This document shows, one piece after another, positions 29,771 through 64,000 of a stretch of 64,000 nt of DNA. The notes beneath the pieces are model-generated. The model ran no database searches. It was not told where the DNA came from and saw only the letters and a program-made list of their open reading frames with translations. A program made the translations under genes and the position numbers. Origin of the DNA: Candidatus Cloacimonadota bacterium (lineage in GTDB: Bacteria; Cloacimonadota; Cloacimonadia; G963667145); assembly GCA_963676515.1 (NCBI GenBank), contig OY781061.1:660776-724775 (forward strand). Reading direction: 5' to 3'. Position 1 is the stretch's first letter. Every line of letters begins with the position of its first letter.

Positions 29771-32700
29771 TTAAAAAGGTTTATAAGAATCCCACCATTT
29801 TTCAGCACCCAAGTCATAGTTAGCATACCTTTCTTCATCAAGACTAGTTAGCTTACTCTTCCAACCACTAAGGTTTATATTGAAAGCTTTAGCAAACATA
29901 AACATAGCACTCATCCATTCAACATTGCCTACATTCCAAGCAGAAATATTACCATTAAATTTCGTTGCCCCAGCAAACATATAATTCATATTGGTGACAC
30001 TGTCTACATCCCAAGAGTTTAAATCCTTATTAAAAGCTTTTGCTCCATCAAACATATAACTCATATTGGTAACGCTACTAACATCCCAGCCATTAATGTC
30101 GCCGTTAAACATGGTATCATTAAAAAACATAAAGCTCATATTTGTAACACTGCCTACTTCCCAAGAATTCAAATTCTGATTAAAAGTTTCTGCTCCGGAA
30201 AACATATGAAGCATATTTTCAACTTTACTTACATTCCAATTAGAAATATTACTATTAAATAAAATTGCATTAGAAAACATACCTTGCATAGTCTGCACAT
30301 TGCTCACATCCCAGCCACTGATATCCCCATTAAATTCCTTAGCTCCACTAAACATATAATTCATAATCGTTACATTGCTTACATCCCAGCCACTGATATC
30401 TTGATTGAATGTTGAATCACTACTAAATAAAGATTCCATATTAGTGATCCCAGCTGTATTGACCTGAGTGACATCATCGCGATCGGCTATCATAGCTTTC
30501 AAGGTGTTTAGCGTGATATATGTCGTGGCACTGTCGATACTGGAGAAAGCAGATTGCCCAGCGTCGCTATAAGCTGCTATTTTGTAGAAGCGTTTGCTGT
30601 TTTCACTGAGGCTGGTGATGCTGTAGTTGGAGACAAGCCCCACGGTTGTCGTGTCATAGCTCCCTTCACTACTGGTGGCTGTACACAGGTAATAACCTGT
30701 AGCTCCAGCGACTTCGCTCCAAGATATGTCTATTTGTGTAGGGCTCGCGGCACTATCGGACAAAATGGTAGGAGTAGCAACAATTGTGGTAACACTTACG
30801 CTATCAGAAAGACTGGATGTATCCACAGCGTTATAAGCTTGGATCTTGTAAAAATGCTTGGAGTTGGCATTAAGTCCTTTGTTTTGGTAAATGATGTCAT
30901 CAATATCACCGATTGGACTGAAATTTTCACCACTAGAGTCTGCATGATATATCGTGTATCCTTCTGCCCCGCTAACTTTGTCCCACGATATGTCTATTTG
31001 GGAAAAGCTCTTGGCTTCCGCAAAAACATTGGCAGGAGCGTTTACATTTATTTTCCCTATTACAACTGCAGAGAAATCGGATACACCGCGTCCATGATAG
31101 GATCGTACCTTGTAATAATACTCTGTGTCTGAATTGAGTCCCATGCTGCTGTAGAATGTATCGGTTCTAACAATTGAGTCGCCATAGTGCTCTCCATCGT
31201 CTGATATGTAGAGATAATAGCCATCTGCTCCCGCGGCTGTGCTCCACGATATTCTTATTTGGGAAGAGTCTACCGCACTCGCCTTTAGGTCAGCTGGAGC
31301 GGCGACAATCGTGGTGTCGCTCAATATGTCAGAGAAAACGCTGTAACCGTTGCCGTTGTAAGCCTTCAGCTTGTAAGTGTAGACTGTGTAAGCGGAAAGC
31401 CCTGTGTCGCTGTAAGAGTTGCTACTGATGTCGCCAACACTACCGTATTCTCCATTAGTGGTATCTAATCGATAAATCTTGTATCTGGCTGCTCCAGGGA
31501 CGGTGTCCCATCGCAAATCTATGCGTGATGCACTAACGACACTGCTCTCAAGATTGCTCGGAGCTAAGACGATTGTGGTGTCGCTTATTCCGCTGGAGAA
31601 CGCACTGTAACCGCTACCATTATAAGCCTTCACCTTGTAAAAGTACTCTGTGTTTGCGGCGAGTCCTGTGCTGTAATAAGTGGTGCTATTGGTGTCGCCG
31701 ATTGAAATGTAGTCTCCACTAATGGTATCTAATCGGTATATTGCATAGCTGGTTGCTCCAGCGACTGCGTGCCAACTCAGGTTTATCTGTGATGCACTCA
31801 CGACACTGTCGGTGAGATTCGTGGGAGACGCGACAATCGTGAAAATCCTCAATGTGTCGGAGAAATCACTATAGCCTTTCGTATTATGAGCACTCACTCT
31901 GTAGAAATACTTCGTGTTTGCAGTGAGACCTGTGTCGCTGTAGGTGGTGACATTCCCCAAAGTTGTGTCGCTGTATGTCCGCCCGCTGTCTACAGAGAAC
32001 GAGAGGCGATAGCCTGCCGCTCCATCTACTTCGCTCCATTTCAAATCTATGCGTGAAGCACTCACGACGCTGTCGGTGAGATTGCTCGGAGCTAAGACGA
32101 TTGTGGTGTCGCACAATATGTCGGAGAAGGCACTATTGCCTTTCCCGTTACGGGCTAACACCTTGTAGTAATGCACACTGTTTGCAGCGAGTCCTGTGTC
32201 GCTGTAGGAAGTGTCATTGCCAAGAATTGTGTCGCTGTAAGCAGTGCCATCTTCTGAGTAAGAGAGAGAATAGCTCGTTGCTCCATCGACTGTGTTCCAA
32301 AACAGCTTTATCTGTGATGAACTAATGACACTGTCGGTGAGGCTCTTAGGAGCATCAATAATCGTTGTGTCGCTCACGGTGTTCGAGAAAATACTGTAGC
32401 CGTTGTTATTATAAGCTAGTACCTTGTAGGAATAGACGGTGAAAGCGGAAAGCCCTGTGTCGCTGTAAGAATTGCTATTGGCAACACCAACACTGTCGTA
32501 GTCTCCACTAGTGGTATCTAATCGGTAAATCTTATAGCTGGCTGCTCCAGGAACGGTGTCCCATCGCAAATCTATGCGTGAAGCACTGACGACGCTGTCG
32601 ACAAGGTTAGCAGGAGCGGCAACGATTGTGGTGTCGCACAATATGTCGGAGAAGGCACTATTGCCTTTCCCGTTACGGGCTAACACCTTGTAGTAGTGCA

Positions 32701-38700: not shown

Positions 38701-39847
38701 TTCCTTTTACGATTTGGGAAAACTCGGATGTGTCCACAGCGTTATAGGCTTTTATTTTATAATAATACATTGTATCTGCAGAGGCAACTTTATGACTGTA
38801 AGAGGTGACATTCTCAATAGTTGTAGGGGAATAATTATTGCCATCGTCTGAGATATAGAGGTAATAGCCTGCCGCTCCACAAGTTACAGTCCAAGACAAA
38901 CCTATCTGTGTCGAGTTCAGAACTCTAAGTGAGAGCCCTTCTGGATCCAAGAGTTTTACTCTCGATTTTACGGTGGCAGAAAAGTCTGAACTCCTAGAGG
39001 ATCTATAAGCTTTTAGTTTGTAGGAATATTCTATGTGTGGATCGGACACTGTGTCCGTGTAAAAGAGAACATTGCCGACATCTATCTGAGCGTAAGCCTC
39101 AATGCTGGCAGTATCTTTGTAGAGAGTGTAGCCATCGGCACCATCGACAGCATCCCACGACAAAAATATTTGTGAAATACTTACAGCTTTAGCGGCTAAA
39201 TTGCTGGGAGCTGCGACTATCGTGGTGTCACCTGCGATGTTGGAATATTCACTCTCACCACTTTCGTTATACGCTTTCACCTTATAGAAACAAGCTGTGT
39301 TTGCCTTGAGTCCTGTGTTACTATAAAAATTGCTGTTGACATTTCCAATAGGGTTGTAAGCTCCGCCCAGCGAAGATGATTTGTATATTCTGTAGTTTGC
39401 TTCTCCACTCACTGCGTTCCATGATAAATCTATTCGAGAAGAGCTTATAGCTTTTGCCGTTAGGTTGGTAGGAGTGGAAACAATCGTGATGGCACTTACG
39501 ATATCGGAAAATTCGCTATAACCATCAGCATTATAAGCTGTCACTTTGTAGTAATATTTTGTGTTTGCACTAAGCCCCGTGCTGGAACATAAATTGCTAC
39601 TGACATTGTTAATTTCGCTGTAATCTCCATCAAGAGCTGTTGCTTGGTGTACTTTATAACCTGTGGCTGTGCTCACGACATACCAAGACAAATCTATTTG
39701 CGAAGAATCTACGACAGTCGCCTCTAGATTGGTAGGAGCAGCTGGGAGAATCAGTTCCTCTGCATCGTCGTTTCCAGAAGGGCTGGTGCAGGTGACGAAA
39801 ATGACCAAGCTAAATATGATCGCTAAAAGTTTGAAACAATTCTTCAC
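29771..39847 (-). CDS. Giant surface lipoprotein. Signal peptide with lipobox, then about 30 tandem fibronectin-type-III-like modules, then a C-terminal block of 25-residue BspA/DUF285-type LRR repeats (~7 copies, 29771-30500).
   Basis: ORF 29771-39880 in the track. A GTG at 39847 is preferred as the start. It is preceded by AGAGGA 7 nt upstream and gives MKNCFKLLAIIFSLVIFVTC, parallel to paralog 2 (MKNWLKILVIIFSSVVFVTC). The repeats carry FN3 hallmarks (P-x-L...W...Y-x-[VI]-Y...Y-x-Y-x-V-x-A-x-N). The C-terminus is FNQDISGWDVSNVTIMNYMFSGA x7. Confidence 0.8.
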   Translation of the reverse strand: MKNCFKLLAIIFSLVIFVTCTSPSGNDDAEELILPAAPTNLEATVVDSSQIDLSWYVVSTATGYKVHQATALDGDYSEINNVSSNLCSSTGLSANTKYYYKVTAYNADGYSEFSDIVSAITIVSTPTNLTAKAISSSRIDLSWNAVSGEANYRIYKSSSLGGAYNPIGNVNSNFYSNTGLKANTACFYKVKAYNESGESEYSNIAGDTTIVAAPSNLAAKAVSISQIFLSWDAVDGADGYTLYKDTASIEAYAQIDVGNVLFYTDTVSDPHIEYSYKLKAYRSSRSSDFSATVKSRVKLLDPEGLSLRVLNSTQIGLSWTVTCGAAGYYLYISDDGNNYSPTTIENVTSYSHKVASADTMYYYKIKAYNAVDTSEFSQIVKGRIHVTNPENLTAKSISASEIDLSWDVVSGADSYRVFMSPNFSNGTYTKIGETADTAYRSNELAANTEYFYKVIAFNKAGSSNIDYANIASDTTIVAPPAGFSDTVVSFSQIDLQWDAVDGAAGYRLYISADDGNNYCDTAIEKVTSYSDTGLTANSKYYYKILAYNGNGDSEFSDTLIITTKVLAPTGLADIVISASQINLSWNSVEGADGYTIYRSSPSSADYKHTLIGEVTSCNDTGLTAFTSYTYKVTAYSDAGESGFSDTLCDTTMVAAPANFCDSVVDSSQINLFWSSVDGASCYYVSYSIDSGRTYIDTSVGTDTFYYSTGLNANTKYFYTVRAYNYKGYSDYSDTLSLFTIVAAPTNVSAKSKSSSRIDISWDEVEGAERYRVYMDTTGNVGSNNLLVDTSSTSYCNTGLAANTEYFYKVTAYNTVGESKASSIVSDTTIVAAPSNLSDSVVSASRIDLQWDTVPGAASYKIYRLNTTSKKYDSVGVASINSYSDTALSAYTVYTYKLKAYNGNGNSEFSGILFDTTKVDAPKNLTDSVISASQIKLFWNTVAGADGYSLSYSGDGTNYSDTALGNVTTYSDTGLAANSVHYYKVLAYNGKGNGEFSSTLSDTTIVTHPSNLTDSVVSASQIDLRWNAVDGAKGYRLAFSIDSGQTYSDTTLGDVTTYSDKGLAANSVHYYKVLAYNGNGDSEFSNILSDTTMVAAPSTLTDSVISSSQIKLFWNSVAGATSYSLSYSGDGTNYSDTALGNVTTYSHTGLFANSVHFYKVQAYNTKGFGVFSSVISDTTIVTYPSNLTDSVVSASRIDLQWDTVPGAASYTIYRDTTIGGGYDSVGVASINSYSDTGLSANTAYFYKLKAHNGNGYSEFSDILSDTTKVDAPKSLTDSVISSSQIKLFWNTVDGATSYSLSYSEDGTAYSDTILGNDTSYSDTGLAANSVHYYKVLAYNGKGNGEFSSVLSDTTIVLAPRNLTDSVVSASQIDLKWSEVEGAAGYRLAFSIDSGQTYSDTTLGNVTTYSDTGLTAYTVYSYKLKAYNGNGYSIFSKTVSDTTKVAAPSNLTDSVVSKSQINLYWNSVAGATSYSLSYSEDGTAYSDTILGNVTTYSDTGLAANSVHYYKVKAYNTKGFGAFSSVISDTTIVTHPSNLTDSVVSASRIDLQWDTVPGAASYKIYRLDTTNGEYGSVGDISSNFYSDTGLSAYTVYSYKVLAYNNNGDSEFSDILSDTTIVAAPSNLTDSVVSKSQINLYWNTVAGADSYYIYRDTVINVGDNKIGATDDTIYLSTGLTANTEYFYKVLAYNTKGFGAFSSVISDTTIVLAPSNLTDSVVSASRIDLKWSEVDGAAGYVVYIDTSGDGNYTREENAEDTVFSIESLSANTVYSYKVLAYNNNGDSEISDILSDTTIVDAPSNLTDSVISASQIKLFWNTVAGASGYYVYMDTISDGAYASMKEATDTFYSDTGLFANSVHYYKVLAYNGKGDGEFSSTLCDTTIVAPPRNLTDSVVSASRIDLSWSEVEGAAGYVVYIDTIISGNYDRKETTDGTTFSIENLSANTAYFYKLKAHNGNGYSIFSDILSDTTIVDAPSNLTDSVVSKSQINLYWNTVAGADSYYIYRDTIINVGDNKIGATNETNYLSTGLTANTEYFYKVQAYNTKGFGAFSSVISDTTIVTHPSNLSDSVMSASQIDLKWDTVPGAASYKIYRLDTTSKKYDSVGVASINSYSDKGLSAYTVYSYKVLAYNNNGESKFSDTLSDTTKVDAPSNLTDSVISSSQIKLFWNTVAGATSYAIYRLDTISGDYISIGDTNSTTYYSTGLTANTEYFYKVRAYNTKGFGEFSGTLSDTTIVAAPSNLADSVVSASRIDLKWSEVEGATGYRLAFSIDSGRTYSDTTLGDVTTYSDKGLAANSVHYYKVLAYNGNGDSEFSDILSDTTIVDAPKSLTDSVISSSQIKLFWNSVDGATSYSLSYSGDGTNYSDTALGNVTTYSHTGLTANSVHYYKVLARNGKGNSAFSDILCDTTIVAAPANLVDSVVSASRIDLRWDTVPGAASYKIYRLDTTSGDYDSVGVANSNSYSDTGLSAFTVYSYKVLAYNNNGYSIFSNTVSDTTIIDAPKSLTDSVISSSQIKLFWNTVDGATSYSLSYSEDGTAYSDTILGNDTSYSDTGLAANSVHYYKVLARNGKGNSAFSDILCDTTIVLAPSNLTDSVVSASRIDLKWSEVDGAAGYRLSFSVDSGRTYSDTTLGNVTTYSDTGLTANTKYFYRVSAHNTKGYSDFSDTLRIFTIVASPTNLTDSVVSASQINLSWHAVAGATSYAIYRLDTISGDYISIGDTNSTTYYSTGLAANTEYFYKVKAYNGSGYSAFSSGISDTTIVLAPSNLESSVVSASRIDLRWDTVPGAARYKIYRLDTTNGEYGSVGDISSNSYSDTGLSAYTVYTYKLKAYNGNGYSVFSDILSDTTIVAAPADLKASAVDSSQIRISWSTAAGADGYYLYISDDGEHYGDSIVRTDTFYSSMGLNSDTEYYYKVRSYHGRGVSDFSAVVIGKINVNAPANVFAEAKSFSQIDISWDKVSGAEGYTIYHADSSGENFSPIGDIDDIIYQNKGLNANSKHFYKIQAYNAVDTSSLSDSVSVTTIVATPTILSDSAASPTQIDISWSEVAGATGYYLCTATSSEGSYDTTTVGLVSNYSITSLSENSKRFYKIAAYSDAGQSAFSSIDSATTYITLNTLKAMIADRDDVTQVNTAGITNMESLFSSDSTFNQDISGWDVSNVTIMNYMFSGAKEFNGDISGWDVSNVQTMQGMFSNAILFNSNISNWNVSKVENMLHMFSGAETFNQNLNSWEVGSVTNMSFMFFNDTMFNGDINGWDVSSVTNMSYMFDGAKAFNKDLNSWDVDSVTNMNYMFAGATKFNGNISAWNVGNVEWMSAMFMFAKAFNINLSGWKSKLTSLDEERYANYDLGAEKWWDSYKPF

Positions 39848-39914
39848 TTTTATTCCTCTATTTCCAAAACAATTTCCCAAATAATGTCAACTTTGTTACA
39901 CTTTTGGAATTTGT

Positions 39915-39922
39915 CAAATATA
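39915..39922 (-). promoter_or_regulatory. Candidate promoter element TATATTTG(ACAA) (minus strand), 68 bp upstream of the giant gene 1 start.
   Basis: The same TA(A/T)ATTTGACAA motif sits at an equivalent distance (66 bp) upstream of giant gene 2 (52193-52200). It matches the TAnnTTTG (-7) consensus of Bacteroidota and also contains a TTGACA hexamer. Confidence 0.35.
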
Positions 39923-40056
39923 GTTATGGATTTTTAACTGAAAAATCAAAACAAGTTTGAAAGAGCAGAGCAAAAGTGTCTAGGATTTGGGGTTCATATC
40001 AGGATGTAAGGAAACAGAAACCGCAGATAGACACAGATGACTACAGATGACTGCCC

Positions 40057-40253
40057 CTTTTGTGCATCGTGTGGGAGAATGGATTCCCGCTTCCGCGGGA
40101 ATGAGGGCTGGGTGGCGATGCAGAGCTGGTGGTGAATAAACATACTGGCTGATGAAGGCACAAGGCGTGCGGTGTGCAGGAATGGGGACTGGTGGTGTGC
40201 TTCCTTGCCTTGCTTGCCTCATCCTCGCGAAAGCGGGGATCCAAGGGCGGGTG
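40057..40253. repeat. 'BA' repeat unit copy.
   Basis: Contains the TTCCCGC-TTCC-GCGGGAA palindrome, two Chi-like GCTGGTGG octamers and the GNRA hairpin at 40221-40240. Confidence 0.8.
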
Positions 40254-40384
40254 TAAACACCAGCAGAAATTTTGCGTCTTCAGCGTGCGAGGTAGGTTTA
40301 GATTTTAGATTTCGGCTTTGGTTTTTTGACTGTATGCTTTGTTTCGTATGCATTCCCAAGCTGGAGCTTGGGAACGAGGGGAAA
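40254..40384. repeat. 'C' repeat module copy.
   Basis: cagcagaaattttgcgtcttc...tttgactgtatgctttgtttcgtatgcaTTCCCAAGCTGGAGCTTGGGAAcgagggg. Copies lie at 40971-41099 and 52410-52530, with a variant at 53040-53200. Confidence 0.8.
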
Positions 40385-40414
40385 TCCCTCTGATAAGAGA
40401 AGATACCTGCTTTT

Positions 40415-40639
40415 TAGCTTTCAGCTGGACTCCATCTTTTCTTTGAACGCTCAACGAAAAGATAGAGGAGAAAAGAAAACCGCTCCGCTTCAATCCGCCA
40501 GAGAGATGGCGTGAGGTGTGTAGGCTGTCCGTGGTGGAGAGCACCTCCGATATTTGTTCTTAGCTGTGCATTTTCAATTGCTGGCATTGCAGTGCCATAG
40601 ATAAAGGTCTGTGTCTCTGGCTCTGCCCGTGAAGCGGAG
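40415..40639. repeat. Repeat module 'D', copy 2.
   Basis: About 90% identical to 128-350. Confidence 0.8.
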
Positions 40640-40660
40640 AAATTCCCCATCCTAGCTAGC

Positions 40661-41099: not shown

Positions 41100-41137
41100 A
41101 AAAATCCTTGCTGCCCAAACAGAAATGAACGAAGCAT

Positions 41138-41173: not shown

Positions 41174-41192
41174 CTTCTTCTAAATTTAAAAT

Positions 41193-53200: not shown

Positions 53201-53204
53201 GAAA

Positions 53205-53490
53205 GGGGGCTGCCCCTGCCCTGCCCCTTTTGTGCATCGTGTGGGAGAATGGATTCCCGCTTCCGCGGGAATGAGGGCTGGGTGGCGATGCAGAGCTGGT
53301 GGTGAATAAACATACTGGCTGATGAAGGCACAAGGCGTGCGGTGTGCAGAAATGGGGGCTGGTGGTGTGCTTCCTTGCCTTGCTTCCCTCATCCTCGCGT
53401 AAGCGGGAATGAGGGCTGGTGGGAACGCAGAGCGTGTGGTGCTTCTTGCTTCTCTTGCCTCATCCTCGCGGAAGCGGGGATCCAAGGACA
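53205..53490. repeat. 'BA' unit plus a partial tail duplication.
   Basis: Aligns to 40057-40253. At 53391-53410 the A-hairpin 5' arm is fused to the B-palindrome 3' arm (cctcgcgtaagcgggaatgagggctggtgg), a module chimera. A second hairpin with a GGAA loop lies at 53462-53481. Confidence 0.75.
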
Positions 53491-53566
53491 AGAGCGAGTG
53501 GGCTTCGCTCGGTTATCAGCTGACACCTCCAGCGTGTGAGGAAATGAACAAAGCATAAAAAAAAGT

Positions 53567-53603
53567 GAACACGGTCTCTGGTCGTATTCACTTCTTCTTC
53601 TAA
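53567..53603 (-). terminator. Rho-independent terminator of giant gene 3 (module E).
   Basis: An A8 run on the + strand (U8 on the minus strand) follows a 10-bp imperfect stem. Lies 10 bp past the stop codon. Confidence 0.75.
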
Positions 53604-53612
53604 ATTTAAAAT

Positions 53613-56600
53613 CTAGTCACTAAAGGGAGGTCTCTTTTGAAAAGACCAATTATAAGCTCCTACATCATAATCTTCATGACTGGTAACTTTTTCTACATCC
53701 CATCCACTTAAGTCAAAAATAAAACAAGATACACCATAAAACATATAATCCATATCCGTGACACTACTCACATCCCAACCACCTATGTCTCGGTAAAAAG
53801 CAACTGCACTATAAAACATGCCTTCCATATCTGTGACCTTATTCACCGTCCAATCACTTATGTCTTGATTAAAATCTTTTGCTGCACAAAACATATAACG
53901 CATATTTGTGACACTACTCACATTCCAACCACCTATGTCTTGGTTAAAAGCATCTGCCCCATAAAACATATAACTCATATTTGAGGCACTACTAACAGCC
54001 CAATCACCTATGTCTTGGTTAAAAGCATCTGCCCCATAAAACATATAACTCATATTTGAGGCACTATTAACAGCCCAACCACCTATGTCTTGGTTAAAAG
54101 CAGATGCCTCATAAAACATATGACTCATATCTGTGACCATCAACATTCTCCAACTATATATACTCTTATTAAATGCATATGCACGATAGAACATATAACT
54201 CGTATTTGTGAGCTTCTCTGTATCCCAGCCACCTATATATTGGTTAAAAACAGATGCCTCAGAAAACATATAACTCATATCCGTGACATTAGACACTTTC
54301 CAACCACCTATATATTGGTTAAAAGCAGATGCCCCAGAAAACATATACCTCATAGTTGTGACATTACCTACGACCCAATCACCTATGTCTTGGTTAAAAG
54401 CAGATGCATTACAAAACATAAAACTCATATTTGTGACTTTGCTCACATTCCAGCCACCTATGTCTTGGTTAAAAGCAAATGCAGACTGAAACATAGAATT
54501 CATATTTGTGACATTATTAACATCCCATCCACCTATGTCTTGGTTAAAAGCTTTTGCGAAAAAAAACATTTTTTCCATATTCGTGACACTATTCATTTGC
54601 CAACCACCTATGTCTTGGTTAAAAGCATCTGCTGCATAAAACATCTCGCTCATATCCGTAACTTTACTCACATCCCACTTGCTTATATCTTGATTGAATT
54701 TTGTTTTATCATAAAACAAACCAGACATATCTGTAATTCCGCCTGTATTGACTAGGGTGACATCATCACCAGCAGCTACCTTACTCCGCAAAGTAGCTTC
54801 CGTGATATATGTCGTGGCATTTGCGATATTGGAGTCGGCAGATTCCCCTGCTGCTGCAGTATAAGCTTTCACTTTGTAATAATACTCTTGGTTTTCGCTA
54901 AGCCATGTATCGTTGTAGGAAGTGCCAGCGACATTACCGATTGGGGAGTAACTGCTATATTCAGAGTCTGCTCGGTATATGTAGTATTGTGTAACTCCTT
55001 GCACTGAGCTCCAAGATAAGTTTATTTGCCCAAAGGTTGTGGTTTTAGCTGATAAATTAGTCGGAGCATCAACTTTTGTGGTGACAATCAATGTATTCGA
55101 TACTTCACTATCCCCCTTCTCATTATAAGCTATCACCTTGCAGTGATAGATTGTGTTTGAGGTGAGTTCTTTTTTTGTGCAGGAAGTAACATTCCCAACG
55201 CTTGTGCCGGCGAAACTTAGATTGCCGTCTGCGAAGTAGAAATAATAGCCTGTAGCTCCCTCGACTTTGTTCCAAGATATCGTTATTTGGGAAGAGGTAG
55301 CAGATGTTTTGGTTAGATTAGTCGGAGCAGCTACCATCGTGGTTTCACTCGCCTTGCTAGAGTACTCAGATTCCCCTGCATCGCTGTAGGCTGTCACTTT
55401 GTAGTAGTAGGTTGTATTGGCGGAGAGTTCTTTGCTCTGGTAAGTTGTATCCGTGATATCGTCAATTTCGCTGTAAGTTCCATCACTAGAGGCTGATCTG
55501 TATATTTTATAGCCAGTCTTCCCTTCAACTTCGCTCCAAGATAAATCTATTTGGAAAGCACTTTTGGTAGTAGCGGAAAAGCCCGTTGGAGCTAACACTC
55601 TTGTGGTCGCCCTCAATTCGTCAGAAAATTCGCTATTGCCCTTTGTATTGTGAGCTAGCACCTTGTAATAATACTCTGTGTCAGCAATGAGTCCTGTGTG
55701 GCTGTAAGAAGTGACATTGCCGACTGCTGTGTCGGTGTATGTCTTGCCGCTATCGGCAGAGTAAGCGAGGTAATAATCTGTCGCTCCGACGACTGTGTCC
55801 CAATATATGTCTATCTGTGAGGAACTGGTGATAGTGTCGATTAGGTTGACTGGAGCTGCAACGATGGTGGTGTCGCTCAGTGTGTCAGAAAATTCACTCT
55901 CACCGTTCCCATTGTGTGCTAGCACCTTGTAAAAATACACGGTATTCGCAATAAGGCTTTCGATGCTAAAGCTGGTGTCAGTGGTAGCCTCTTTTCGGGT
56001 ATAGTTTCCGTCTCTGCTTGTGTCTATATAAATATCGTAGCCTGCTGCTCCAGCGACTAGACTCCAGCTCAAATCTATCTGCGATGCACTGATGACGCTG
56101 TCGGTGAGATTAGCAGGAGCTGCAACGATGGTGGTATCGAGCAATGTGCTGGAGAACTCACTCTTGCCGTTCCCATTGTGAGCTTGCACCTTGTAATAGT
56201 GCTCTGTGTTTGCACTGAGCCCTGTGTGGCTGTAGGTAGTGACATCGCCCACTGCTGTGTCGGTGTAGCTACTACCATCGACTGAGTAAGAGAGGTAATA
56301 ACTTGTAGCTCCAACGACTGTGTCCCAGCTCAGATCGATGCGTGACTCGCTCACGACACTATCGGCTAAATTGGTAGGAGCTGCAACGATGGTGGTGTCA
56401 CTGGCGAATATAGAGTAATCACTCTCGCCGCTTGCATTCTTGGCTGTCACTTTGTAGAAATACTCTTTGTTTGCGGCTAGCCCTGTGGTGTCCTCGTAGG
56501 ACTCGCTACTGGCAACACCAACATCTATGTATTCGCCATCTCTAGTGGGTGCTCGGTATATTTTATAGTCATCAGCATCCGTGACTGCATCCCAAGCTAA

Positions 56601-59600
56601 GTCTATTTGTGTGGAGCTTTGGGAAGTAGCTACAAGGTTAGCCGGAGCTAGCACTTTTGTGGTGGCACCCAGCGAATCAGAAAATCCACTCTCGCTGTTT
56701 GCATCGTAAGCTTTCACCTTGTAATAATACTCTTTGTTTGCAATGAGTCCTGAGTGAAAGTAGAAAGTATCATTGCCAACTGTTGCATCTCTATAAGTTT
56801 GACCACCGTCTATGGAAAAATAGCACCTGTAGCTTGTTGCTCCAGCGACTTTGTTCCAATATATGTTTATTTGTTTTGCACTGACGATACTGTCGGTGAG
56901 ATGCGTAGGAGTTGCGACAATAGTGAAATCGCTCACTATGAGAGAGAACTCAGACTTTCCAGCATTACTATAAGATTTCACCTTGTAGAAATACTCTGTG
57001 CTAGAAGTGAGATCTGTGCTGTCATAGTAAAAGTCGCTACTGCTAACGCCAACACTGTCGTAAGCCCCATCAGTAGTGGTGGCTCTGTAGATTATGTAGC
57101 TCTTAGCTTGCTCCACTTCGTTCCAAGCTAAGTCTATTCGAGAGGAACTCTTAGCTATAGCGGAGACATTGGTGGGAGCTTGCACTATTATGGTCACTTC
57201 TTTAGCTTGCGAGTATTCACTCTCGCCATTCCCATTGTTAGCGGTTACTTTGTAGAGGTAAGCTGTGTTTGCGGCTAGCCCTGTGCTATAGTAGTAGGCA
57301 GTGGTCGTATCGCCGATGGGCTGGTAAACTCCATTACTAGCGAGTGCTCGATATATCGTGTAGCTGGTAGCTCCAGCGACCTTGCTCCAGCTCAGATTTA
57401 TCTGCGAGGAGCTGACGATGCTGTCGGCTAGATTCGTGGGAGCTAAGACTCTCGTGGTGTCACTGGCTCTGCTAGAGAATGCAGACTCGCCTGCATCATT
57501 ATTAGCTGTTACTTTGTAAAAATATTTTGTGTTCGCACTGAGCCCTGTGCTGTCCTCATAGGACTCGCTAGTGGCACTATCAATATAGGCGTAAGTGCCA
57601 GTACTAGTGAGTGCTCGGTATATTTTGTAGCTCATGACATCCGTGACGGGGTCCCAAGTTAAATCTAATTGTGAGGAGCTTTTGGGGGTAACTAACAGAC
57701 TAGTCGGAGCGTTCAGCCTTGTGGTCGCTGTCAACACACTAGAGGCTTCGCTCTCGCCGTTTGTATTGATAGCTGTCACCTTATAGACATACTCTGTATT
57801 CGGGGTGAGTCCTTGGATATTATGGAAAGTGTCCTTTATCCCTTTAGTCTCGATATCGCCACTAGAGGATGACTGATATACCTTGTAGGTCGTGGCTCCC
57901 TGCACGGTGCTCCAGCTCAGGTCTATCTGCTTAGCACTCGCTACACTGTCGGCAAAATTAGTAGGAGCTGCGACGATTGTGGTGTCGCTTGCCATATTAG
58001 AGTATTCGGACTTCCCTGCTCCGCTGTAGGCTTTCACCATATAATAATAAACCGTATTTGGAGCGAGCCCTGTGCTGTCTTCGTAACTCTTGGTAGTGGC
58101 AACGCCGACACTGTCGTAAACTCCATTACTAGAGGGTGCTCGGTATATTATGTAGCCATCTTTCCCCATGACTTCGTCCCAAGCCAAAGCAATTTTGGAG
58201 GAGCTTTTGGAAGTAGCTGACAGATTAGCAGGAGCTAACACTCTTGTGGTCACTTTGATTTCTGAGGCAGCACCATCGCCGTTTGCATTAGTAGCTGTTA
58301 CCTTGTAGGAATACTCTGTATTTGCACTGAGCCCTGTGCTCTCATAGTAATTTGTGCTAATCTTAATTACGCTAACATCGCTGGAAGGTTCGCGAGATAT
58401 TTTGTAGCTGGTAGCTCCAACCACTGAGTCCCATTTCAGATTTATCTGCTTAGCACTCACGACTTCGTAGGTAAGATTAGCAGGAGCAGCCACTATTGTG
58501 GTCGCACTTTGGGTTTCGGAGGAGTCACTCTCGCCGCCAGCATTGTAAGCGGTTACTCTGTAAAAATACTCCGTGTGTGCACTGAGTTCTGTATTATCCT
58601 CGTAGGAGTCGCTACTGGCAGTCCCTGCTGGCTGGTAGTCTCCATTACTAGCGGTTGCTCGGTATATATTGTAGCTCGTAGCTCCAGCCACTGAGCTCCA
58701 AGATAAGCCTATTTGCGAAGAGCTTTGGGCAGTAACTACCAGATTGGTAGGAGCTAAGAAAATCGTGGTGTCGCTTGCGACATCAGAAAGCACACTCTCG
58801 CCACTGGCACTGCTAGCTGTCACCTTGTAAAAATACTCTATATTTGCTGTGAGCCCTGTGCTGTCATTGTACTGCTCGCTGCTGGTCACGCCGACACTGG
58901 AATAATCTTTATCACTAGAAAGTGACCTGTAGATTATGTAGTCATCTGCTCCTTTGACTTTGCTCCAAGCTAAGTCTATTTGAGAAGGACTTTTGGCAGT
59001 AGCCACTAGATCGGTAGGAGCGAGCACTCTTGTGGTCACTTTTATAATTTCTGAGTCTTCACTATCGCCTTTTGCGTTGTGAGCTTTCACCTTATAGAAA
59101 TAATCTGTAGCTGCGATAAGTTCGGAGTAGTCGCTGTAGGATTCTTCAGTGACTCGCCCAATTTGGCTATAATCTCCACCAATAGTGGATGCTCGATGTA
59201 TTGTGTAGTTGATAGCTCCAGGCACTAAGTCCCAGCTCAGTTTTATTTGTGTAGCACTGATGACACTGTCGATGATATTACTAGGAGCTGCCACCATCGT
59301 GGTGTCCATTGCCATATTAGAGTATGCGGACTTCCCTGCATCGCTGTAGGCTTTCACCTTGTAGTAATAAGATGTGTATGAGCTGAGTCCAGTGCTGTCA
59401 GCGTAAAACTCGCTGCTGTCCACGCCAATGCTATCGTAAGCTCCACCAATAGCAGGTGCTCGGTATATTGCGTAGCTCGATGCTCCCGATACTTCGTCCC
59501 ATGCCAAATCTATGCGTGAGGCACTTTGGGTAGTAGCTGTTAGACCAGCAGGAGCTAACACTCTTGTTCTCGTAGTCAATACGCTAGAGGCTTCACTCTC

Positions 59601-62600
59601 GCCGTTTCCATTGTAAGCTATTACTTTGTAGGAATACTCCGTATCTGCAGTGAGTCCCAAGATGTCAGCGTAGAAGTTGCTACTAATGTCACTAGCTATC
59701 TTGTATTTTGTACTGCTCGCGGCTCGACGATACACTTTGTAGTCTGTGGCGCCATCGACTTCGCCCCAAGATAAATTTATTTGTGATGAGCTAACGACAC
59801 TGTCAGTGAGATTCTCAGGAGGCGAAACAACTGTGGTGTCACTTGCGATATTAGAGTAATCGGACTCCCCTACTCCGTTATAAGCTCGGATTTTGTAGTA
59901 ATACTCTGTGTTTGCGATGAGTCCTGTGCTGTCACTGTAGGACTCGCTACTGGCAACGCCCACACTGTCGTAAATCCCACTAGCGGAGAGTGATCTGTAT
60001 ATTTTGTAGCCGTCTATTCCAGCGACTGGTCCCCAAACTAAGTCTATTTGCGAAGAGCTTTTGGATGTGGCAGACAAGCCCGCAGGTGCTGAGACAATCG
60101 TGGTTGCTCTCAAGGTGTCGGAATATTCACCATCGCCGTTTACATTGTAAGCTAGCACTTTGTAACTATACTCCTTGTTTGCGTGGAGCTCTGTGCTTTG
60201 CCAGGTAGTGCTCGTGCCGAGAGTTGTGATGTTAAAAGTATTACCGTCGTCTGCAGAGAACCAGACGCGATAACCAGTCGCTCCCTTGACTGAGTCCCAA
60301 GACAGGTTTATTTGAGAAGAGTCTACAACACTATCGGTGAAATTGAGCGGAACTGCGACGAGCGTGGTCTTGCTCACGGTGCTAGAGGCTTCCGACTCTC
60401 CCGCATCGCTATAGGCGGTCACTTGGTAGGAGTACTCGGTGTCTGCTACAAGCTCTTTGCTTTCGTAAGCGAGCTCCCCAGTAACATCGCCGATTTCAGT
60501 GCTATCTCCAGCACTATTTAATAGGTAAATTTTGTAACCCTTAGCTCCAGCGACTTCGCTCCAAGCTAGGTCAATCTGAGAGGAGCTTTCGGCTGTGGCA
60601 GTCACGCTTGCTGGGGTTGCGACGATTGTGGTGACAATCAATGTGTAAGAAAATTCGCTGTCGCCTTTGCCATTGTAGGCTAGCACTTTGTAATGGTAGG
60701 TCGCGTTCGGAGCAAGTCCCGTGCTCTGGTAGGTGGTGACATTGCCTACTGCTATCTCGCTGTAAGATTGACCGCTGTCTGCAGAGAAAGCGAGGCGATA
60801 GCCCGTTGCTCCAGCGACCGAGCTCCAGCTCAGGTCTATCTGCGATGAGCTGATAACACTGTCGGTGAGGTTGCTCGGAGCGGCGACCTTCGTGGTGTCG
60901 CTCAGTGTGTCGGAAAATTCACTCTCGCCGTTGCCATTGTAAGCCAGCACCTTGTAGAAGTAAGCTGTATTCGCACTGAGCCCTGTGCTGTGGTAGATGA
61001 GGCTGTTGGTGTCGCCGATTACCTTGTACTCTCCACCAATGGCGGGTGCTCGGTATATTGCATAGCTGGCTGCTCCAGCGACGATATTCCATCGCAAATC
61101 TATGCGTGATGCACTCACGACGCTGTCGGTGAGATTACTCGGAGCTAGGACGATTGTGGTGTCGCACAATGTGCTAGAGAACGCACCATCGCCTTTGCCA
61201 TTGTAGGCTAGCACTTTGTAGTAGTGCACGCTATTTGCGGTGAGTCCCGCGTGGCTGTAGGTGGTGACGACACAATCTACTGTGTCGTCATAAGTTACGC
61301 CGTCTGCAGAGATTGCGAGACGATAGCCATCTGCTCCGTCGACTTTGCCCCAAAACAGCTTTATCTGTGATGAGCTGACGACACTGTCGATAAAATTACT
61401 CGGCGCGGCGACGATAGTGATGTCACTCACGACGCTAGAGGTGTCTGACTCTCCTGCTCCGCTGTAGGCTGTCACCTTGTAGGAGTAGGTTGTGTTTGGG
61501 CTGAGCCCTGTGCTGTGGCAAATCGTATCTGTGACAAGGTCAACTTCGGTGTAACCTCCATCGCTATTTAATTGGTAAATTTTGTAGCCTGTCGCTCCAG
61601 CGACTTTGCCCCAAGATAAGTCTATTCGCTCAGAACTTCGGGTTGTGGCGAAAACGGAACTCGGAGCGACAACAATAGTGGTATCGCTCAGTATGGCAGA
61701 GAATTTGCTGTAACCTTTTGTATTATATGCCCTTACCTTGTAGTAATGCACGCTATTTGCGGCAAGTCCTGTGTCGCTGTAGGTGGTTACATTGCCTACT
61801 GCTGTGTCGCTGTATGTCCGCCCGCTATCTACAGAGAACGAGAGGGAGTAGCCGTCTGCACCAGTGACTGCATCCCAATAGAGATCAATCTGCGATGCAC
61901 TGCTGACACTATTGGTGAGATTGCTCGGAGCGGCGACGATTGTGGTGTCGCTCACTATGCTGGAATATTTGCTATCGCCATTACCATTCGAGGCTTTCAC
62001 CTTGTAGGAATAGACTGTGTTCGCCGTGAGCCCTGTGTCGCTGTAGAAGTTGCTACTGATACCGCCGACACTGTCGTTCACTCCACCACTGGCGGGTGTG
62101 CGGTATATTGTGTAGCTGGCAGCTCCGGGGACTGTGTCCCATCGCAAATCTATGCGTGAAGCACTCACGACGCTGTCACTGAGATTGCTCGGCGGTGCGA
62201 CGATGGTGGTGTCGCTCACTGTGCTGGAGGCTTTGCTGTCGCCGACTGCACTGTATGCTCTCACCCTGTAGAAGTACTCGGTATTTGCAGTGAGTCCTGT
62301 GCTTTGGTAGGCGGTGACATTGCCCAGAATGGTGTCTAGGTAATTTATATCATCGTCTGAGAAAGAGAGAGAATAGCCGTCTGCTCCATCCACTTCGCTC
62401 CACGATATGTCGATTCGAGATGAGCTCTTGCTTTTGGCAGTTACATTCCTCGGTGTCAAGACCATCGTGTAGGTGCTCAAGGTGTCCGAGAATTTGCTAT
62501 AGCCTCTCAGATTGTAGGCTCGCACTGCGTAGAAATACTTCGTGTTTGCCTCGAGACCTGTGCTGTGGTAGAGAGTGTCCGTGCCGACAGGTGTGTAACT

Positions 62601-64000
62601 GTAAGTTTGACCGCTGTCGGCAGAGAAAGAAAGATAATATTCTGTGGCACCAGCGACTTTGCTCCACGACAAATCTATCTTTGAAGAGTCTACAACTTTA
62701 TAGGAAAAATTGGCAGGTACTGCGACAATCGTGGTGTCGCTCACGATGTCAGAGAAGCCAGATTCCCCAGCGGCACTGTAAGCTGTCACTTTGTAGTAGT
62801 AGCCTGTGTTCGCTGCGAGTCCCGTGCTCTGGTAGGAAGTAACTTTGCCAAGGTCAACTCCGCTGTAAACTCCACTGCTAGAGTCTGATGTGTATATTAT
62901 GTAGCCAGTAGCTCCAGCGACTTTGCCCCATGATATGTTTATTTGAGTTGAGCTTTTAGTTTTCGCTAATACACTAGTCGGAGCTAAGACCTTTGTGGTG
63001 ACTATAAATCTGTCAGAAAATTCGCTATAGCCGTTATTATTGTATGCCTGAACCTTGTAGTGGTAGGCTTTATTGGCGGTGAGTCCTGTGAAGTGATAAG
63101 TGGTGGTGCTATCGACCACAGGGGTGATACTGTAAGTTTCCCCATCGTCTGCAGATAAATAGAGAGAATAGCCCTCTGCTCCCGCGACTGTATCCCAAGA
63201 TATGTTTATTTGAGAAGAACTAACGACAGTATCGGATAAACCAGTAGGAGCGGCTACAATCGTGGTTTTACTTATTATGCTAGAGTTTCCACTGGTGTGG
63301 GCATTATTAGAAGACTGCACCTTGTAAAAATACTTCGTGTTTGCACTGAGCAATGTGTCGTGGTAAACTGTATCTTTGACTATAACTATATCGCTAAAAG
63401 TTACGCTGTCTTTTGATGCGTGGAGACGATATTCCGCTGCACCACTGACTGCGTCCCAAGATATGTCTATTTGAGAGGAGCTTTTGGCTATGGCAGTTAC
63501 ATTTTCAGGGGTAATTACATTTATTCTCCCTTTTACTACTTCCGAGAACTCCGATGTGTCCGCAGCGTTATAAGCTTCCAACTTGTAAAAATATTCTATA
63601 TCCGGATAGGAAACAAGGTCATTGTAAGAAAGAACACTGCCAATATTTTTAGCGGTATAGCTCTTGCCATTGTCTGCCGATTTATAGAGAAAATAACCTG
63701 TTACTCCACTGGCGATATCCCAAGACAATCTTATATGTGTCTGGTCCTGAACGACAAGAGAAAGTCCTTCTGGTTTCAATAGACTCAATCTCACATCTAC
63801 GGTATTTGAAAAATCCGAAACTTTAGTCGCCCTATAAGCTTTTAATCTGTAAAAATATTTTATGTATGAATTGGAAATTATATCTGTGTAGGAAATCTCA
63901 CTGCCGACATCTATCTGGGTGTATATCTCGCTGGTGGTAGAATGTCTGTAGAGATAGTAACCTTCTGCACCATCGACAGCGTCCCACGACAAAGATATTT
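53613..64000 (-). CDS. Giant surface lipoprotein paralog 3, 5'-truncated by the window edge (more than 3,460 aa visible). FN3-like modules and a C-terminal BspA/DUF285-type LRR block (~16 repeats, 53613-54800).
   Basis: The ORF is open to the window end; the 'M' given in the track is only the first in-frame Met. It is co-linear with paralog 2 and locally ~90% DNA-identical to it (e.g. 60900-61380 vs 48360-48840). Confidence 0.8.
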   Translation of the reverse strand, partial: ISLSWDAVDGAEGYYLYRHSTTSEIYTQIDVGSEISYTDIISNSYIKYFYRLKAYRATKVSDFSNTVDVRLSLLKPEGLSLVVQDQTHIRLSWDIASGVTGYFLYKSADNGKSYTAKNIGSVLSYNDLVSYPDIEYFYKLEAYNAADTSEFSEVVKGRINVITPENVTAIAKSSSQIDISWDAVSGAAEYRLHASKDSVTFSDIVIVKDTVYHDTLLSANTKYFYKVQSSNNAHTSGNSSIISKTTIVAAPTGLSDTVVSSSQINISWDTVAGAEGYSLYLSADDGETYSITPVVDSTTTYHFTGLTANKAYHYKVQAYNNNGYSEFSDRFIVTTKVLAPTSVLAKTKSSTQINISWGKVAGATGYIIYTSDSSSGVYSGVDLGKVTSYQSTGLAANTGYYYKVTAYSAAGESGFSDIVSDTTIVAVPANFSYKVVDSSKIDLSWSKVAGATEYYLSFSADSGQTYSYTPVGTDTLYHSTGLEANTKYFYAVRAYNLRGYSKFSDTLSTYTMVLTPRNVTAKSKSSSRIDISWSEVDGADGYSLSFSDDDINYLDTILGNVTAYQSTGLTANTEYFYRVRAYSAVGDSKASSTVSDTTIVAPPSNLSDSVVSASRIDLRWDTVPGAASYTIYRTPASGGVNDSVGGISSNFYSDTGLTANTVYSYKVKASNGNGDSKYSSIVSDTTIVAAPSNLTNSVSSASQIDLYWDAVTGADGYSLSFSVDSGRTYSDTAVGNVTTYSDTGLAANSVHYYKVRAYNTKGYSKFSAILSDTTIVVAPSSVFATTRSSERIDLSWGKVAGATGYKIYQLNSDGGYTEVDLVTDTICHSTGLSPNTTYSYKVTAYSGAGESDTSSVVSDITIVAAPSNFIDSVVSSSQIKLFWGKVDGADGYRLAISADGVTYDDTVDCVVTTYSHAGLTANSVHYYKVLAYNGKGDGAFSSTLCDTTIVLAPSNLTDSVVSASRIDLRWNIVAGAASYAIYRAPAIGGEYKVIGDTNSLIYHSTGLSANTAYFYKVLAYNGNGESEFSDTLSDTTKVAAPSNLTDSVISSSQIDLSWSSVAGATGYRLAFSADSGQSYSEIAVGNVTTYQSTGLAPNATYHYKVLAYNGKGDSEFSYTLIVTTIVATPASVTATAESSSQIDLAWSEVAGAKGYKIYLLNSAGDSTEIGDVTGELAYESKELVADTEYSYQVTAYSDAGESEASSTVSKTTLVAVPLNFTDSVVDSSQINLSWDSVKGATGYRVWFSADDGNTFNITTLGTSTTWQSTELHANKEYSYKVLAYNVNGDGEYSDTLRATTIVSAPAGLSATSKSSSQIDLVWGPVAGIDGYKIYRSLSASGIYDSVGVASSESYSDSTGLIANTEYYYKIRAYNGVGESDYSNIASDTTVVSPPENLTDSVVSSSQINLSWGEVDGATDYKVYRRAASSTKYKIASDISSNFYADILGLTADTEYSYKVIAYNGNGESEASSVLTTRTRVLAPAGLTATTQSASRIDLAWDEVSGASSYAIYRAPAIGGAYDSIGVDSSEFYADSTGLSSYTSYYYKVKAYSDAGKSAYSNMAMDTTMVAAPSNIIDSVISATQIKLSWDLVPGAINYTIHRASTIGGDYSQIGRVTEESYSDYSELIAATDYFYKVKAHNAKGDSEDSEIIKVTTRVLAPTDLVATAKSPSQIDLAWSKVKGADDYIIYRSLSSDKDYSSVGVTSSEQYNDSTGLTANIEYFYKVTASSASGESVLSDVASDTTIFLAPTNLVVTAQSSSQIGLSWSSVAGATSYNIYRATASNGDYQPAGTASSDSYEDNTELSAHTEYFYRVTAYNAGGESDSSETQSATTIVAAPANLTYEVVSAKQINLKWDSVVGATSYKISREPSSDVSVIKISTNYYESTGLSANTEYSYKVTATNANGDGAASEIKVTTRVLAPANLSATSKSSSKIALAWDEVMGKDGYIIYRAPSSNGVYDSVGVATTKSYEDSTGLAPNTVYYYMVKAYSGAGKSEYSNMASDTTIVAAPTNFADSVASAKQIDLSWSTVQGATTYKVYQSSSSGDIETKGIKDTFHNIQGLTPNTEYVYKVTAINTNGESEASSVLTATTRLNAPTSLLVTPKSSSQLDLTWDPVTDVMSYKIYRALTSTGTYAYIDSATSESYEDSTGLSANTKYFYKVTANNDAGESAFSSRASDTTRVLAPTNLADSIVSSSQINLSWSKVAGATSYTIYRALASNGVYQPIGDTTTAYYYSTGLAANTAYLYKVTANNGNGESEYSQAKEVTIIVQAPTNVSAIAKSSSRIDLAWNEVEQAKSYIIYRATTTDGAYDSVGVSSSDFYYDSTDLTSSTEYFYKVKSYSNAGKSEFSLIVSDFTIVATPTHLTDSIVSAKQINIYWNKVAGATSYRCYFSIDGGQTYRDATVGNDTFYFHSGLIANKEYYYKVKAYDANSESGFSDSLGATTKVLAPANLVATSQSSTQIDLAWDAVTDADDYKIYRAPTRDGEYIDVGVASSESYEDTTGLAANKEYFYKVTAKNASGESDYSIFASDTTIVAAPTNLADSVVSESRIDLSWDTVVGATSYYLSYSVDGSSYTDTAVGDVTTYSHTGLSANTEHYYKVQAHNGNGKSEFSSTLLDTTIVAAPANLTDSVISASQIDLSWSLVAGAAGYDIYIDTSRDGNYTRKEATTDTSFSIESLIANTVYFYKVLAHNGNGESEFSDTLSDTTIVAAPVNLIDTITSSSQIDIYWDTVVGATDYYLAYSADSGKTYTDTAVGNVTSYSHTGLIADTEYYYKVLAHNTKGNSEFSDELRATTRVLAPTGFSATTKSAFQIDLSWSEVEGKTGYKIYRSASSDGTYSEIDDITDTTYQSKELSANTTYYYKVTAYSDAGESEYSSKASETTMVAAPTNLTKTSATSSQITISWNKVEGATGYYFYFADGNLSFAGTSVGNVTSCTKKELTSNTIYHCKVIAYNEKGDSEVSNTLIVTTKVDAPTNLSAKTTTFGQINLSWSSVQGVTQYYIYRADSEYSSYSPIGNVAGTSYNDTWLSENQEYYYKVKAYTAAAGESADSNIANATTYITEATLRSKVAAGDDVTLVNTGGITDMSGLFYDKTKFNQDISKWDVSKVTDMSEMFYAADAFNQDIGGWQMNSVTNMEKMFFFAKAFNQDIGGWDVNNVTNMNSMFQSAFAFNQDIGGWNVSKVTNMSFMFCNASAFNQDIGDWVVGNVTTMRYMFSGASAFNQYIGGWKVSNVTDMSYMFSEASVFNQYIGGWDTEKLTNTSYMFYRAYAFNKSIYSWRMLMVTDMSHMFYEASAFNQDIGGWAVNSASNMSYMFYGADAFNQDIGDWAVSSASNMSYMFYGADAFNQDIGGWNVSSVTNMRYMFCAAKDFNQDISDWTVNKVTDMEGMFYSAVAFYRDIGGWDVSSVTDMDYMFYGVSCFIFDLSGWDVEKVTSHEDYDVGAYNWSFQKRPPFSD

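Follow-up and report, generated by a model that had tools for sequence, protein, structure and literature searches.

The stretch of DNA analysed here, 64,000 nucleotides from contig OY781061.1 of a Candidatus Cloacimonadota bacterium (hereafter the window), raises the question of what kind of protein is made by three giant genes that lie side by side in it and are here called G1, G2 and G3. A preliminary description had taken them for tandem lipoprotein genes with FN3 modules and a C-terminal leucine-rich repeat (LRR) cap, and had read them as a dedicated, probably variable surface-fibril or adhesin system. Our analysis confirms the observation with corrected numbers and supports the interpretation in part. 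A surface fibril or adhesin is indeed the most economical reading of an anchor, an FN3 stalk and an LRR-type cap, and judging from sequence we put a probability of about 60% on G1, G2, G3 and a fourth paralogue being independently transcribed giant fibrillar adhesins at the cell surface. All four rival explanations considered below are less well supported.

Reading frames, stalk modules and head repeats

The three giant frames are consecutive and co-oriented, as had been described. All are on the minus strand and open throughout:

29771..39880, minus: G1 open reading frame (ORF), 3369 aa from TTG
29771..39847, minus: G1 coding sequence, 3358 aa, GTG start with AGAGGA before it, stop at 29771-29773
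41193..52127, minus: G2 coding sequence, 3644 aa, TTG start with GAAGGA before it
53613..64000, minus: G3 coding sequence, N-terminus beyond the window end, 3461 aa or more visible

The GTG at 39847 is also the start of G1 in the public gene call P0335 (3358 aa, equal length), and the AGAGGA in front of it is a Shine-Dalgarno sequence; G2 corresponds to the public gene call P0332, again of equal length. The frame of G3 runs on without a stop up to base 63998, and since its first module, which is partial, pairs in the alignment with module 3 of G2, about two modules and the signal peptide lie outside the window. Open frames of 10 kb in DNA of 46% GC are no product of chance. The giant proteins have masses of 362-392 kDa and a pI of 4.4-4.5; they are acidic, with abundant Ser, Thr, Ala and Tyr and scarce Cys, and end in ...WWDSYKPF (G1), ...YYQPYFSD (G2) and ...KRPPFSD (G3).

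Domain content and order could be read directly from each protein, which consists of a stalk of FN3 modules, a linker and a head of short repeats:

30524..39751, minus: G1 stalk, 35 FN3 modules of about 88 aa, of which modules 10-32 are amplified with a periodicity of two or four modules
29774..30523, minus: G1 linker and PARCEL/DUF285 head, about 8 repeats of 25 aa, ends in ...SYKPF
42021..52031, minus: G2 stalk, 38 FN3 modules, of which 1-9 are collinear with G1 and 3-24 with modules 1-22 of G3
41196..42020, minus: G2 linker and PARCEL/DUF285 head, about 10 repeats of 25 aa, LRR solenoid predicted
54816..63998, minus: G3 stalk, 1 partial FN3 module, then 34 complete modules
53616..54815, minus: G3 linker and PARCEL/DUF285 head, about 14 repeats of 25 aa

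The Pfam check that had been suggested for the stalk gave strong matches to fn3 (PF00041) in all three proteins, with E-values of 2.5e-211 (G1), 3.6e-248 (G2) and 1.3e-240 (G3), and both this match and the beta-sandwich fold assign the modules to FN3. Further Ig/FN3-like Pfam families gave weaker matches that overlap the fn3 regions. When modules were delimited by anchoring on the conserved [IL]x[ILV]xW motif, the period was 87-91 aa (mode 88) instead of the 97 aa first estimated, and the counts rose from about 30 in each protein to 35 in G1, 38 in G2 and at least 35 in G3. Linkers between modules are minimal (...SDTT/IVAAPxNL...). Foldseek, applied to a predicted fragment of G2, recognised the FN3 domain only, the best matches being Fn3 modules of Clostridium thermocellum (33-35% identity) and titin FN3. 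With fn3 and DUF285 as the only domain types in the Pfam results, the picture of FN3 beads on a string, with no other type of domain ahead of the C-terminal block, is accurate.

The C-terminal block of 25-residue repeats is equally clear. It matches Pfam DUF285 (PF03382) with E-values of 4.4e-94 (G1), 3.7e-95 (G2) and 6e-148 (G3), as well as NCBIfam TIGR02167 ("PARCEL repeat") with 76-79 bits against a cut-off of 30. The repeats have the signature FNQDIxxWDVSxVTxMxxMF and a start-to-start spacing of exactly 25 aa in all units, and are joined to the last FN3 module by a conserved linker, YI(S/T)xxxLxxxIxxxDDVTxVNTxGITDMSxLF. The heads are mutually 47-56% identical and have thus diverged further than large parts of the G2 and G3 stalks. 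A fragment of G2 made up of its last FN3 module and its head was modelled with AlphaFold2 from an alignment of 53 sequences; the model has a mean predicted local distance difference test score (pLDDT) of 87.5, with 94-99 in the repeat region, and a predicted template modelling score (pTM) of 0.79. The head is thus predicted with high confidence to fold as an LRR-type solenoid. A sequence search against the PDB found no chain that matches the head and no solved DUF285 structure. The name "BspA-type LRR cap" fits as far as the predicted LRR solenoid and the loose naming practice of NCBI go. However, the test for the BspA/TpLRR class gave no match to PF13306 (LRR_5) at E ≤ 0.01 (G1 and G2) or E ≤ 1e-5 (G3), and the repeat is PARCEL/DUF285.

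Palindromy of the coding DNA is a trait of PARCEL repeats; in a crude test, one that could overlook weak symmetry, the head DNA of G2 and G3 had no inverted repeat of 12 nt or more within 80 nt. On the opposite strand, the PARCEL DNA contains long ORFs at 41211-41669 (+) and 54090-54755 (+), and these open frames read as a peptide with a period of 25 aa (...HIPTTYVLVKSxCxxKHxTHICD...). They are probably a by-product of the codon pattern of the repeat. Such antisense openness recalls the two-strand property behind the name PARCEL, although palindromes were not detected.

A fourth paralogue and the history of the modules

To explore how common this architecture is, the last two FN3 modules and the head of G2 were used as a query against 1.84 billion representative proteins. 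At E ≤ 0.001, 120,892 representatives matched, many of them 2,000-6,000 aa long. The search returned G2 (P0332) and G1 (P0335) and, in addition, a protein of 2302 aa, P0336. All three are singletons in clusters at 90% identity and are encoded on the same contig of 1,581,858 bp, which also carries the GalE of the window at 100% identity. P0336 starts with MKTGFKLFVFGLILTLSITAC followed by NIFGNDDGDPPE, a canonical lipobox, carries 19 FN3 modules (with 73-100% protein identity among modules 4-16) and about 19 PARCEL repeats, and ends in ...SYKPF as does G1. Together, the four genes occupy about 39 kb, or 2.5% of the 1.58-Mb contig. With its 13 nearly identical modules, P0336 is the family's best candidate for repeat-number variation and is also the member most exposed to assembly error.

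The best 150 representatives of this search were scanned with hidden Markov models built from the modules of the window. Among them, no protein from another source had all three of lipobox, long FN3 array and C-terminal PARCEL head. A query of 471 N-terminal residues, searched against GTDB species genomes and JGI/ENA metagenomes, yielded generic FN3 arrays only, at no more than 43% identity, and none of the 161 loci examined (scan matches included) had FN3 and PARCEL in one ORF. In two shorter homology searches, the matches listed were at most about 1.75 times as long as the query, so that the lack of giant homologues among them says nothing about their existence. Among the sequences searched, the giant proteins thus appear to unite known parts in a combination not found elsewhere. 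The preliminary description had been unable to place them in a characterised family; this still holds for the whole architecture, which has no characterised or close homologue, but not for its parts, as both domain families and the general class are known. The circular contigs of 1.6-2.1 Mb in ERZ21862645 were considered as relatives and rejected, their GalE being 68% identical and barely above the 64-66% seen for Bacillota. These contigs carry flagellar genes and have about 30% GC. On the circular 2.13-Mb contig with the second-best GalE (ctg38492c), a fliK-flgD-flgE cluster encodes an unusually large FlgE hook protein of 1447 aa (L160, 15746-20089).

An all-against-all comparison of modules bore out the claim of tandem paralogues and added module amplification and mosaic similarity to it. 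Modules 1-9 of G1 are collinear with modules 1-9 of G2 (68-78% DNA identity), and modules 3-24 of G2 with modules 1-22 of G3 (67-94%); beyond this tract the G2 and G3 stalks diverge, with the exception of the last module. The mean DNA identity of modules in the G2 and G3 stalks is only about 57%. Modules 10-32 of G1, by comparison, are one another's best matches, at 78-96% DNA identity. Within this block, modules an even number of positions apart are more alike (0.61-0.68) than those an odd number apart (0.51-0.54), which points to an amplified unit of two or four modules. No clear avoidance of similar adjacent domains emerged for the whole proteins (P 0.18-0.92), and the signal inside the G1 block is weak (P 0.025).

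Ratios of non-synonymous to synonymous divergence (dN/dS), calculated for collinear modules by the method of Nei and Gojobori, range from 0.10 to 0.60 between G2 and G3 and from 0.16 to 0.63 between G1 and G2, so that the modules are under purifying selection. The dS values of collinear G2/G3 modules vary from 0.12 to 0.72, a mosaic that is best explained by patchy gene conversion. The family thus displays the evolution of a giant repeat gene, with a conserved proximal stalk, amplification by two or four modules and mosaic gene conversion. To call the proteins "variable", as had been done, is an overstatement, as this was derived from the comparison of paralogues only and all paralogues are singletons in the 90% clusters.

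These data also bear on the possibility that the genes are artefacts of mis-assembled repeats or decaying pseudogenes. G1 modules are up to 96% identical in DNA and P0336 modules up to 100% identical in protein, and such tracts can be mis-assembled from short reads. Still, no stop interrupts any of the three frames over 10 kb, all dN/dS values are below 1, most modules of a protein share only 43-49% identity, and the public gene calls match the ORFs; the 1.58-Mb source contig, moreover, suggests a long-read or otherwise high-quality assembly. We therefore regard an artefact or decay as extremely unlikely.

Probable anchor, transcription units and surroundings

If the proteins act at the surface as fibres, they have to be held there, and the N-termini of G1 and G2 suggest how:

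39788..39847, minus: G1 signal peptide, ends in a lipobox-like F-V-T-C (Cys20), with NDDAEE at +7 to +12
52068..52127, minus: G2 signal peptide, ends in F-V-T-C (Cys20), then the acidic EDEDTEE

The N-terminus reads MKNCFKLLAIIFSLVIFVTC followed by TSPSGNDDAEE in G1 and MKNWLKILVIIFSSVVFVTC followed by TTTYEDEDTEE in G2, with the cysteine at position 20 in both. The position of this residue, directly after the hydrophobic core, is common to G1, G2 and P0336. Compared with the lipobox pattern [LVI][ASTVI][GAS]-C, G1 (...VIFVTC) and G2 (...VVFVTC) have Thr at -1, whereas P0336 (...LSITAC, i.e. I-T-A-C) passes. Acidic residues follow the cysteine at +8/+9/+11/+12 in G1, at +6 to +9 and +11/+12 in G2 and at +7/+8/+10/+13 in P0336. 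In the lipoprotein export signal (LES) of Bacteroidota, a polar or basic residue is followed by at least two acidic residues at +3 to +5, and their position is critical (PMC5080379); this signal was rejected for the giant proteins, as their patch is similar in character but too far from the cysteine. Type IX secretion (T9SS), sortase anchoring and repeats-in-toxin (RTX) secretion were rejected as well, since neither the T9SS C-terminal domain (PF18962) nor LPXTG nor RTX repeats were found in the Pfam results and on reading the C-termini. There is no beta-barrel among the Pfam matches of the giant proteins.

On these grounds, the giant proteins are probably lipid-anchored. The preliminary description had made each of them a lipoprotein with an acidic stretch after the cysteine, and the signal, Cys20 and acidic patch are indeed present in G1 and G2; less secure are the lipobox, with its Thr at -1, and the extension to G3, whose N-terminus lies outside the window. 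The same Thr, which breaks the classical lipobox, is the argument for an ordinary signal peptide or signal anchor, with release or retention by an unrecognised mechanism. We consider this unlikely in view of the cysteine, which all three visible N-termini, though diverged, keep directly behind the hydrophobic core, and of the canonical I-T-A-C of the paralogue. No other anchor motif was found in the giant proteins, and in Mollicutes PARCEL proteins are typically lipoproteins (PMC2996958).

From the architecture we infer lipidation, surface exposure, a rod shape and binding, which can be combined into the following model of a fibrillar adhesin. A Sec signal peptide would direct export, and the conserved cysteine would be lipid-modified so that the N-terminus is held in the membrane, with the acidic residues after the acylated cysteine serving as a short tether. 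In arrays such as those of titin and fibronectin, an FN3 domain is about 3.5-4 nm long; 35-38 tightly linked domains would thus form a rod of about 120-150 nm. An acidic, Cys-poor LRR solenoid of 8-19 PARCEL repeats would sit at the far tip and could contact a ligand outside the polysaccharide coat of the cell itself. Among the paralogues, the membrane-proximal stalk would be the conserved part, whereas the distal stalk, the head sequence and the number of head repeats differ, which would probably give them different reach and binding specificities. The family changes by duplication of units of two or four modules and by patchy gene conversion.

Several points weigh against this model. We know of no ligand for any DUF285 domain. 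The exposure on the outer leaflet is an assumption as to the type of envelope. Lipidation is made less certain by the Thr at -1 of G1 and G2, which is outside [AGS], and by the unseen N-terminus of G3. The acidic patch is at +6 to +12 and not at the +4/+5 of the Bacteroidota LES (PMC5080379). Finally, deletion of a DUF285-containing wall protein lowers the adhesion of Lactococcus to mucin and polystyrene, which speaks indirectly for the model, but this protein has other domains and the phenotype is not assignable to DUF285 itself (PMC5071367).

Whether the giant genes belong to a larger system was addressed by analysing their transcription signals and spacers:

29708..29736, minus: G1 terminator hairpin with T-run, -10.9 kcal/mol, z -3.6
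41138..41178, minus: G2 terminator hairpin, -17.4 kcal/mol, z -4.9
53557..53599, minus: G3 terminator hairpin, -18.9 kcal/mol, z -6.4
39897..39923, minus: block upstream of G1, CTATATTTGACAAATTCCAAAAGTGTA, promoter-like, contains TTGACA; putative promoter
52175..52201, minus: block upstream of G2, CTAAATTTGACAACTTTTAAAAGTCTA, promoter-like; putative promoter
39881..41192, no strand: G1-G2 spacer, no credible gene, two composite REP-like units about 717 bp apart
52128..53612, no strand: G2-G3 spacer, same REP-like modules, no credible gene and no Rfam family

Within 20-40 nt downstream of each stop lies a conserved hairpin and T-run with the motif AGAAGAAGUGGAUACG...CGUGUUCACUUUUUUU, and both visible upstream regions (G1 and G2) have a CTA(T/A)ATTTGACAA..AAAAGT block. 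Owing to their own terminators and conserved upstream blocks, the genes look like separate transcription units. The spacers of 1.3-1.5 kb are mainly a mosaic of hairpin-forming repeats; a search of them for accessory genes, RNAs and signatures of invertible promoters revealed nothing but elements resembling repetitive extragenic palindromes (REP), and no phase-variation device. The giant genes thus look as if they stand alone and are independently transcribed. The notion of a "dedicated system" is not supported, as there are no accessory, secretion or regulatory genes and each gene has its own terminator.

The intergenic repeats resemble REP or miniature inverted-repeat transposable elements (MITE). 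They are built from hairpin modules, e.g. ATTCCCGCTTCCGCGGGAATGAGG and TTCCCAAGCTGGAGCTTGGGAA, and have no match in Rfam. Further copies, at 58-81 and 390-413, downstream of galE, make it probable that the family is spread over the genome.

The array adjoins a surface-polysaccharide locus, as had been stated. The locus (1..29236) comprises about 26 co-oriented genes for polysaccharide biosynthesis. They encode an enzyme of the UDP-glucose/GDP-mannose dehydrogenase family, several epimerases and dehydratases, a glucose-1-phosphate nucleotidyltransferase, DegT aminotransferases, WbqC, a pyruvyl transferase, an ATP-grasp ligase, glycosyltransferases of the GT1 and GT4 families, EpsG, an AT3-SGNH acyltransferase and GalE. 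At its head, downstream of the G1 terminator, lies a regulator gene that marks the true start of the locus and had been missed in a list of ORFs of 150 aa and more:

29256..29588, minus: MarR_EPS regulator, 110 aa, TIGR04176, 126 bits against a cut-off of 88

The GC content is 28-33% in the locus, 46-47% in the giant genes and 44% in galE, and the GC content at third codon positions (GC3) is 0.16-0.25 in four sampled locus genes (wecA-like GT4, ugd, rmlA and AT3) against 0.47-0.49 in the giant genes. The locus and the giant genes must thus have had different compositional histories, and one of the two blocks was probably acquired horizontally. Adjacency to the locus gives no evidence of a functional link, and any such link would be conjectural. 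The compositional split is sharp (1700-29700 versus 29771-64000). Within the locus, neither Pfam nor NCBIfam matches the products of two genes at 17176-19640 on the minus strand (506 aa and 314 aa), which may be membrane proteins of the Wzx/Wzy type, and an untranslated gap of about 650 bp (19641-20290) divides the locus.

The position beside the polysaccharide locus could suggest that the proteins are scaffolds in which FN3 arrays comparable to those of cellulases and chitinases act with the LRR tip to arrange or bind either what the locus produces or a glycan substrate from outside. The best structural matches of the FN3 modules, those of C. thermocellum, would fit this, as would partial matches to the NCBIfam exoglucanase CbhB (328-417 bits against a cut-off of 1950), which are due to the FN3 region of that family. 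However, the Pfam results contain no catalytic domain, carbohydrate-binding module (CBM), dockerin or cohesin, a terminator and a separate unit led by MarR_EPS lie between G1 and the locus, and the GC3 values argue for different histories. Scaffolding is thus very unlikely to be the function of the giant proteins.

Another explanation is that the proteins form a non-adhesive brush or spacer, i.e. that dense acidic rods provide steric or electrostatic shielding, serve as antigenic decoys or space the envelope and that the LRR tips associate with each other. The very acidic, Ser/Thr-rich composition, the similar stalks of several paralogues and the vicinity of a capsule- or O-antigen-like locus would agree with this, as would the plasticity of repeat number, a typical trait of periscope proteins competing for room on the surface (PMC9704523). 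The heads speak for a different role: they are under purifying selection and yet only 47-56% identical, with differing numbers of repeats, which is more typical of domains that carry specificity, and LRR solenoids are classic ligand-binding modules. We therefore consider a brush an unlikely alternative to the fibrillar adhesin.

The fibrillar adhesin model can be taken further, to a proposal that we regard as speculative and unlikely to be correct. A bacterium with a small genome (if the contig is close to the whole genome) might use the four fibres as long-range "grappling" adhesins for attachment to an obligate partner or host, in episymbiosis or predation. If so, about 2.5% of its DNA (about 39 kb) would be spent on four lipid-anchored FN3 fibres of 120-150 nm, module amplification would tune the stalk length to clear the cell's own capsule, and the number of head repeats (8, 10, 14 or 19) would set partner specificity. 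This would be the first functional handle on the widespread DUF285/PARCEL domain.

Comparison with known systems

The first description of PARCEL repeats came from Mollicutes, where they occur in variable surface lipoproteins that are expressed, such as LppQ (PMC2996958). The PARCEL/DUF285 lipoproteins of this group (LppQ and LppC of Mycoplasma mycoides, Mbov_0838) have the same 25-residue repeat in tandem tracts of variable number and, like the giant proteins, combine N-terminal targeting of the lipoprotein type with multiple diverged paralogues per genome and no assigned function (PMC2996958). They differ in size and design, being a few hundred residues long and without a stalk, while the giant proteins have 35-38 FN3 modules between the putative anchor and the PARCEL repeats (PMC2996958). 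The dyad symmetry of PARCEL DNA (PMC2996958) was not detected in the giant genes by a simple inverted-repeat search. The giant proteins score 173.7 and 213.7 bits with the model of the Mbov_0838 family of Mycoplasma bovis (NF045896), far below its cut-off of 500, and have the repeats alone in common with it.

In their overall build, the giant proteins resemble fibrillar adhesins and periscope proteins (SasG, Rib, SiiE and RTX adhesins), which are likewise single-polypeptide rods of tandem Ig- or FN3-like domains (PMC8286594, PMC9704523), encoded by giant genes, with a functional domain projected from the cell and high-identity repeats that expand and contract. Measured against the criteria for fibrillar adhesins (PMC8286594), the tandem stalk is present, the anchor is probable and adhesion by the head is putative. 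These known proteins are anchored by sortase or via type I (T1SS) or type V (T5SS) secretion, whereas the giant proteins have a putative N-terminal lipid and a PARCEL LRR head, and in them only modules 10-32 of G1 and 4-16 of P0336 are high-identity repeats of the periscope kind. BspA of Tannerella forsythia and other TpLRR proteins are located at the surface and implicated in adhesion, and NCBI names DUF285 proteins "BspA family LRR surface protein". The giant proteins, however, are without PF13306, Big_2 and the T9SS C-terminal domain, and their repeat of 25 aa is unlike that of TpLRR.

Closer in size are some proteins from the searches. P0391 (3835 aa) has a lipobox and 35 FN3 modules, with a tail of LRR_4/LRR_8 instead of a PARCEL head, and P0432 (4571 aa) and P0337 (5597 aa) are giant FN3 lipoproteins as well. 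In P0372, DUF285 is dominant and the order is reversed, about 2,850 aa of PARCEL being followed by 7 C-terminal FN3 modules. In none of the four does a long FN3 stalk lead to a PARCEL head at the C-terminus, and the similarity of their modules to those of the giant proteins is generic. Still, the lipobox, tens of FN3 modules and different heads of P0391, P0432 and P0337 show, at the level of predicted domains, that the lipid-anchored stalk-plus-head design recurs.

In the giant proteins, of which one genome encodes four diverged versions, DUF285/PARCEL stands unambiguously at the end of a long stalk. This architecture is strong, if sequence-based, evidence for DUF285/PARCEL as a distal binding module, and the four diverged heads are a natural set for assigning a function to it. 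The principle of anchor, rod and head is well established, and no new category of biology is opened here. Thus, the general kind of giant surface protein is known, and what is new is the union of an FN3 stalk, a PARCEL head and a probable lipid anchor in four paralogues.

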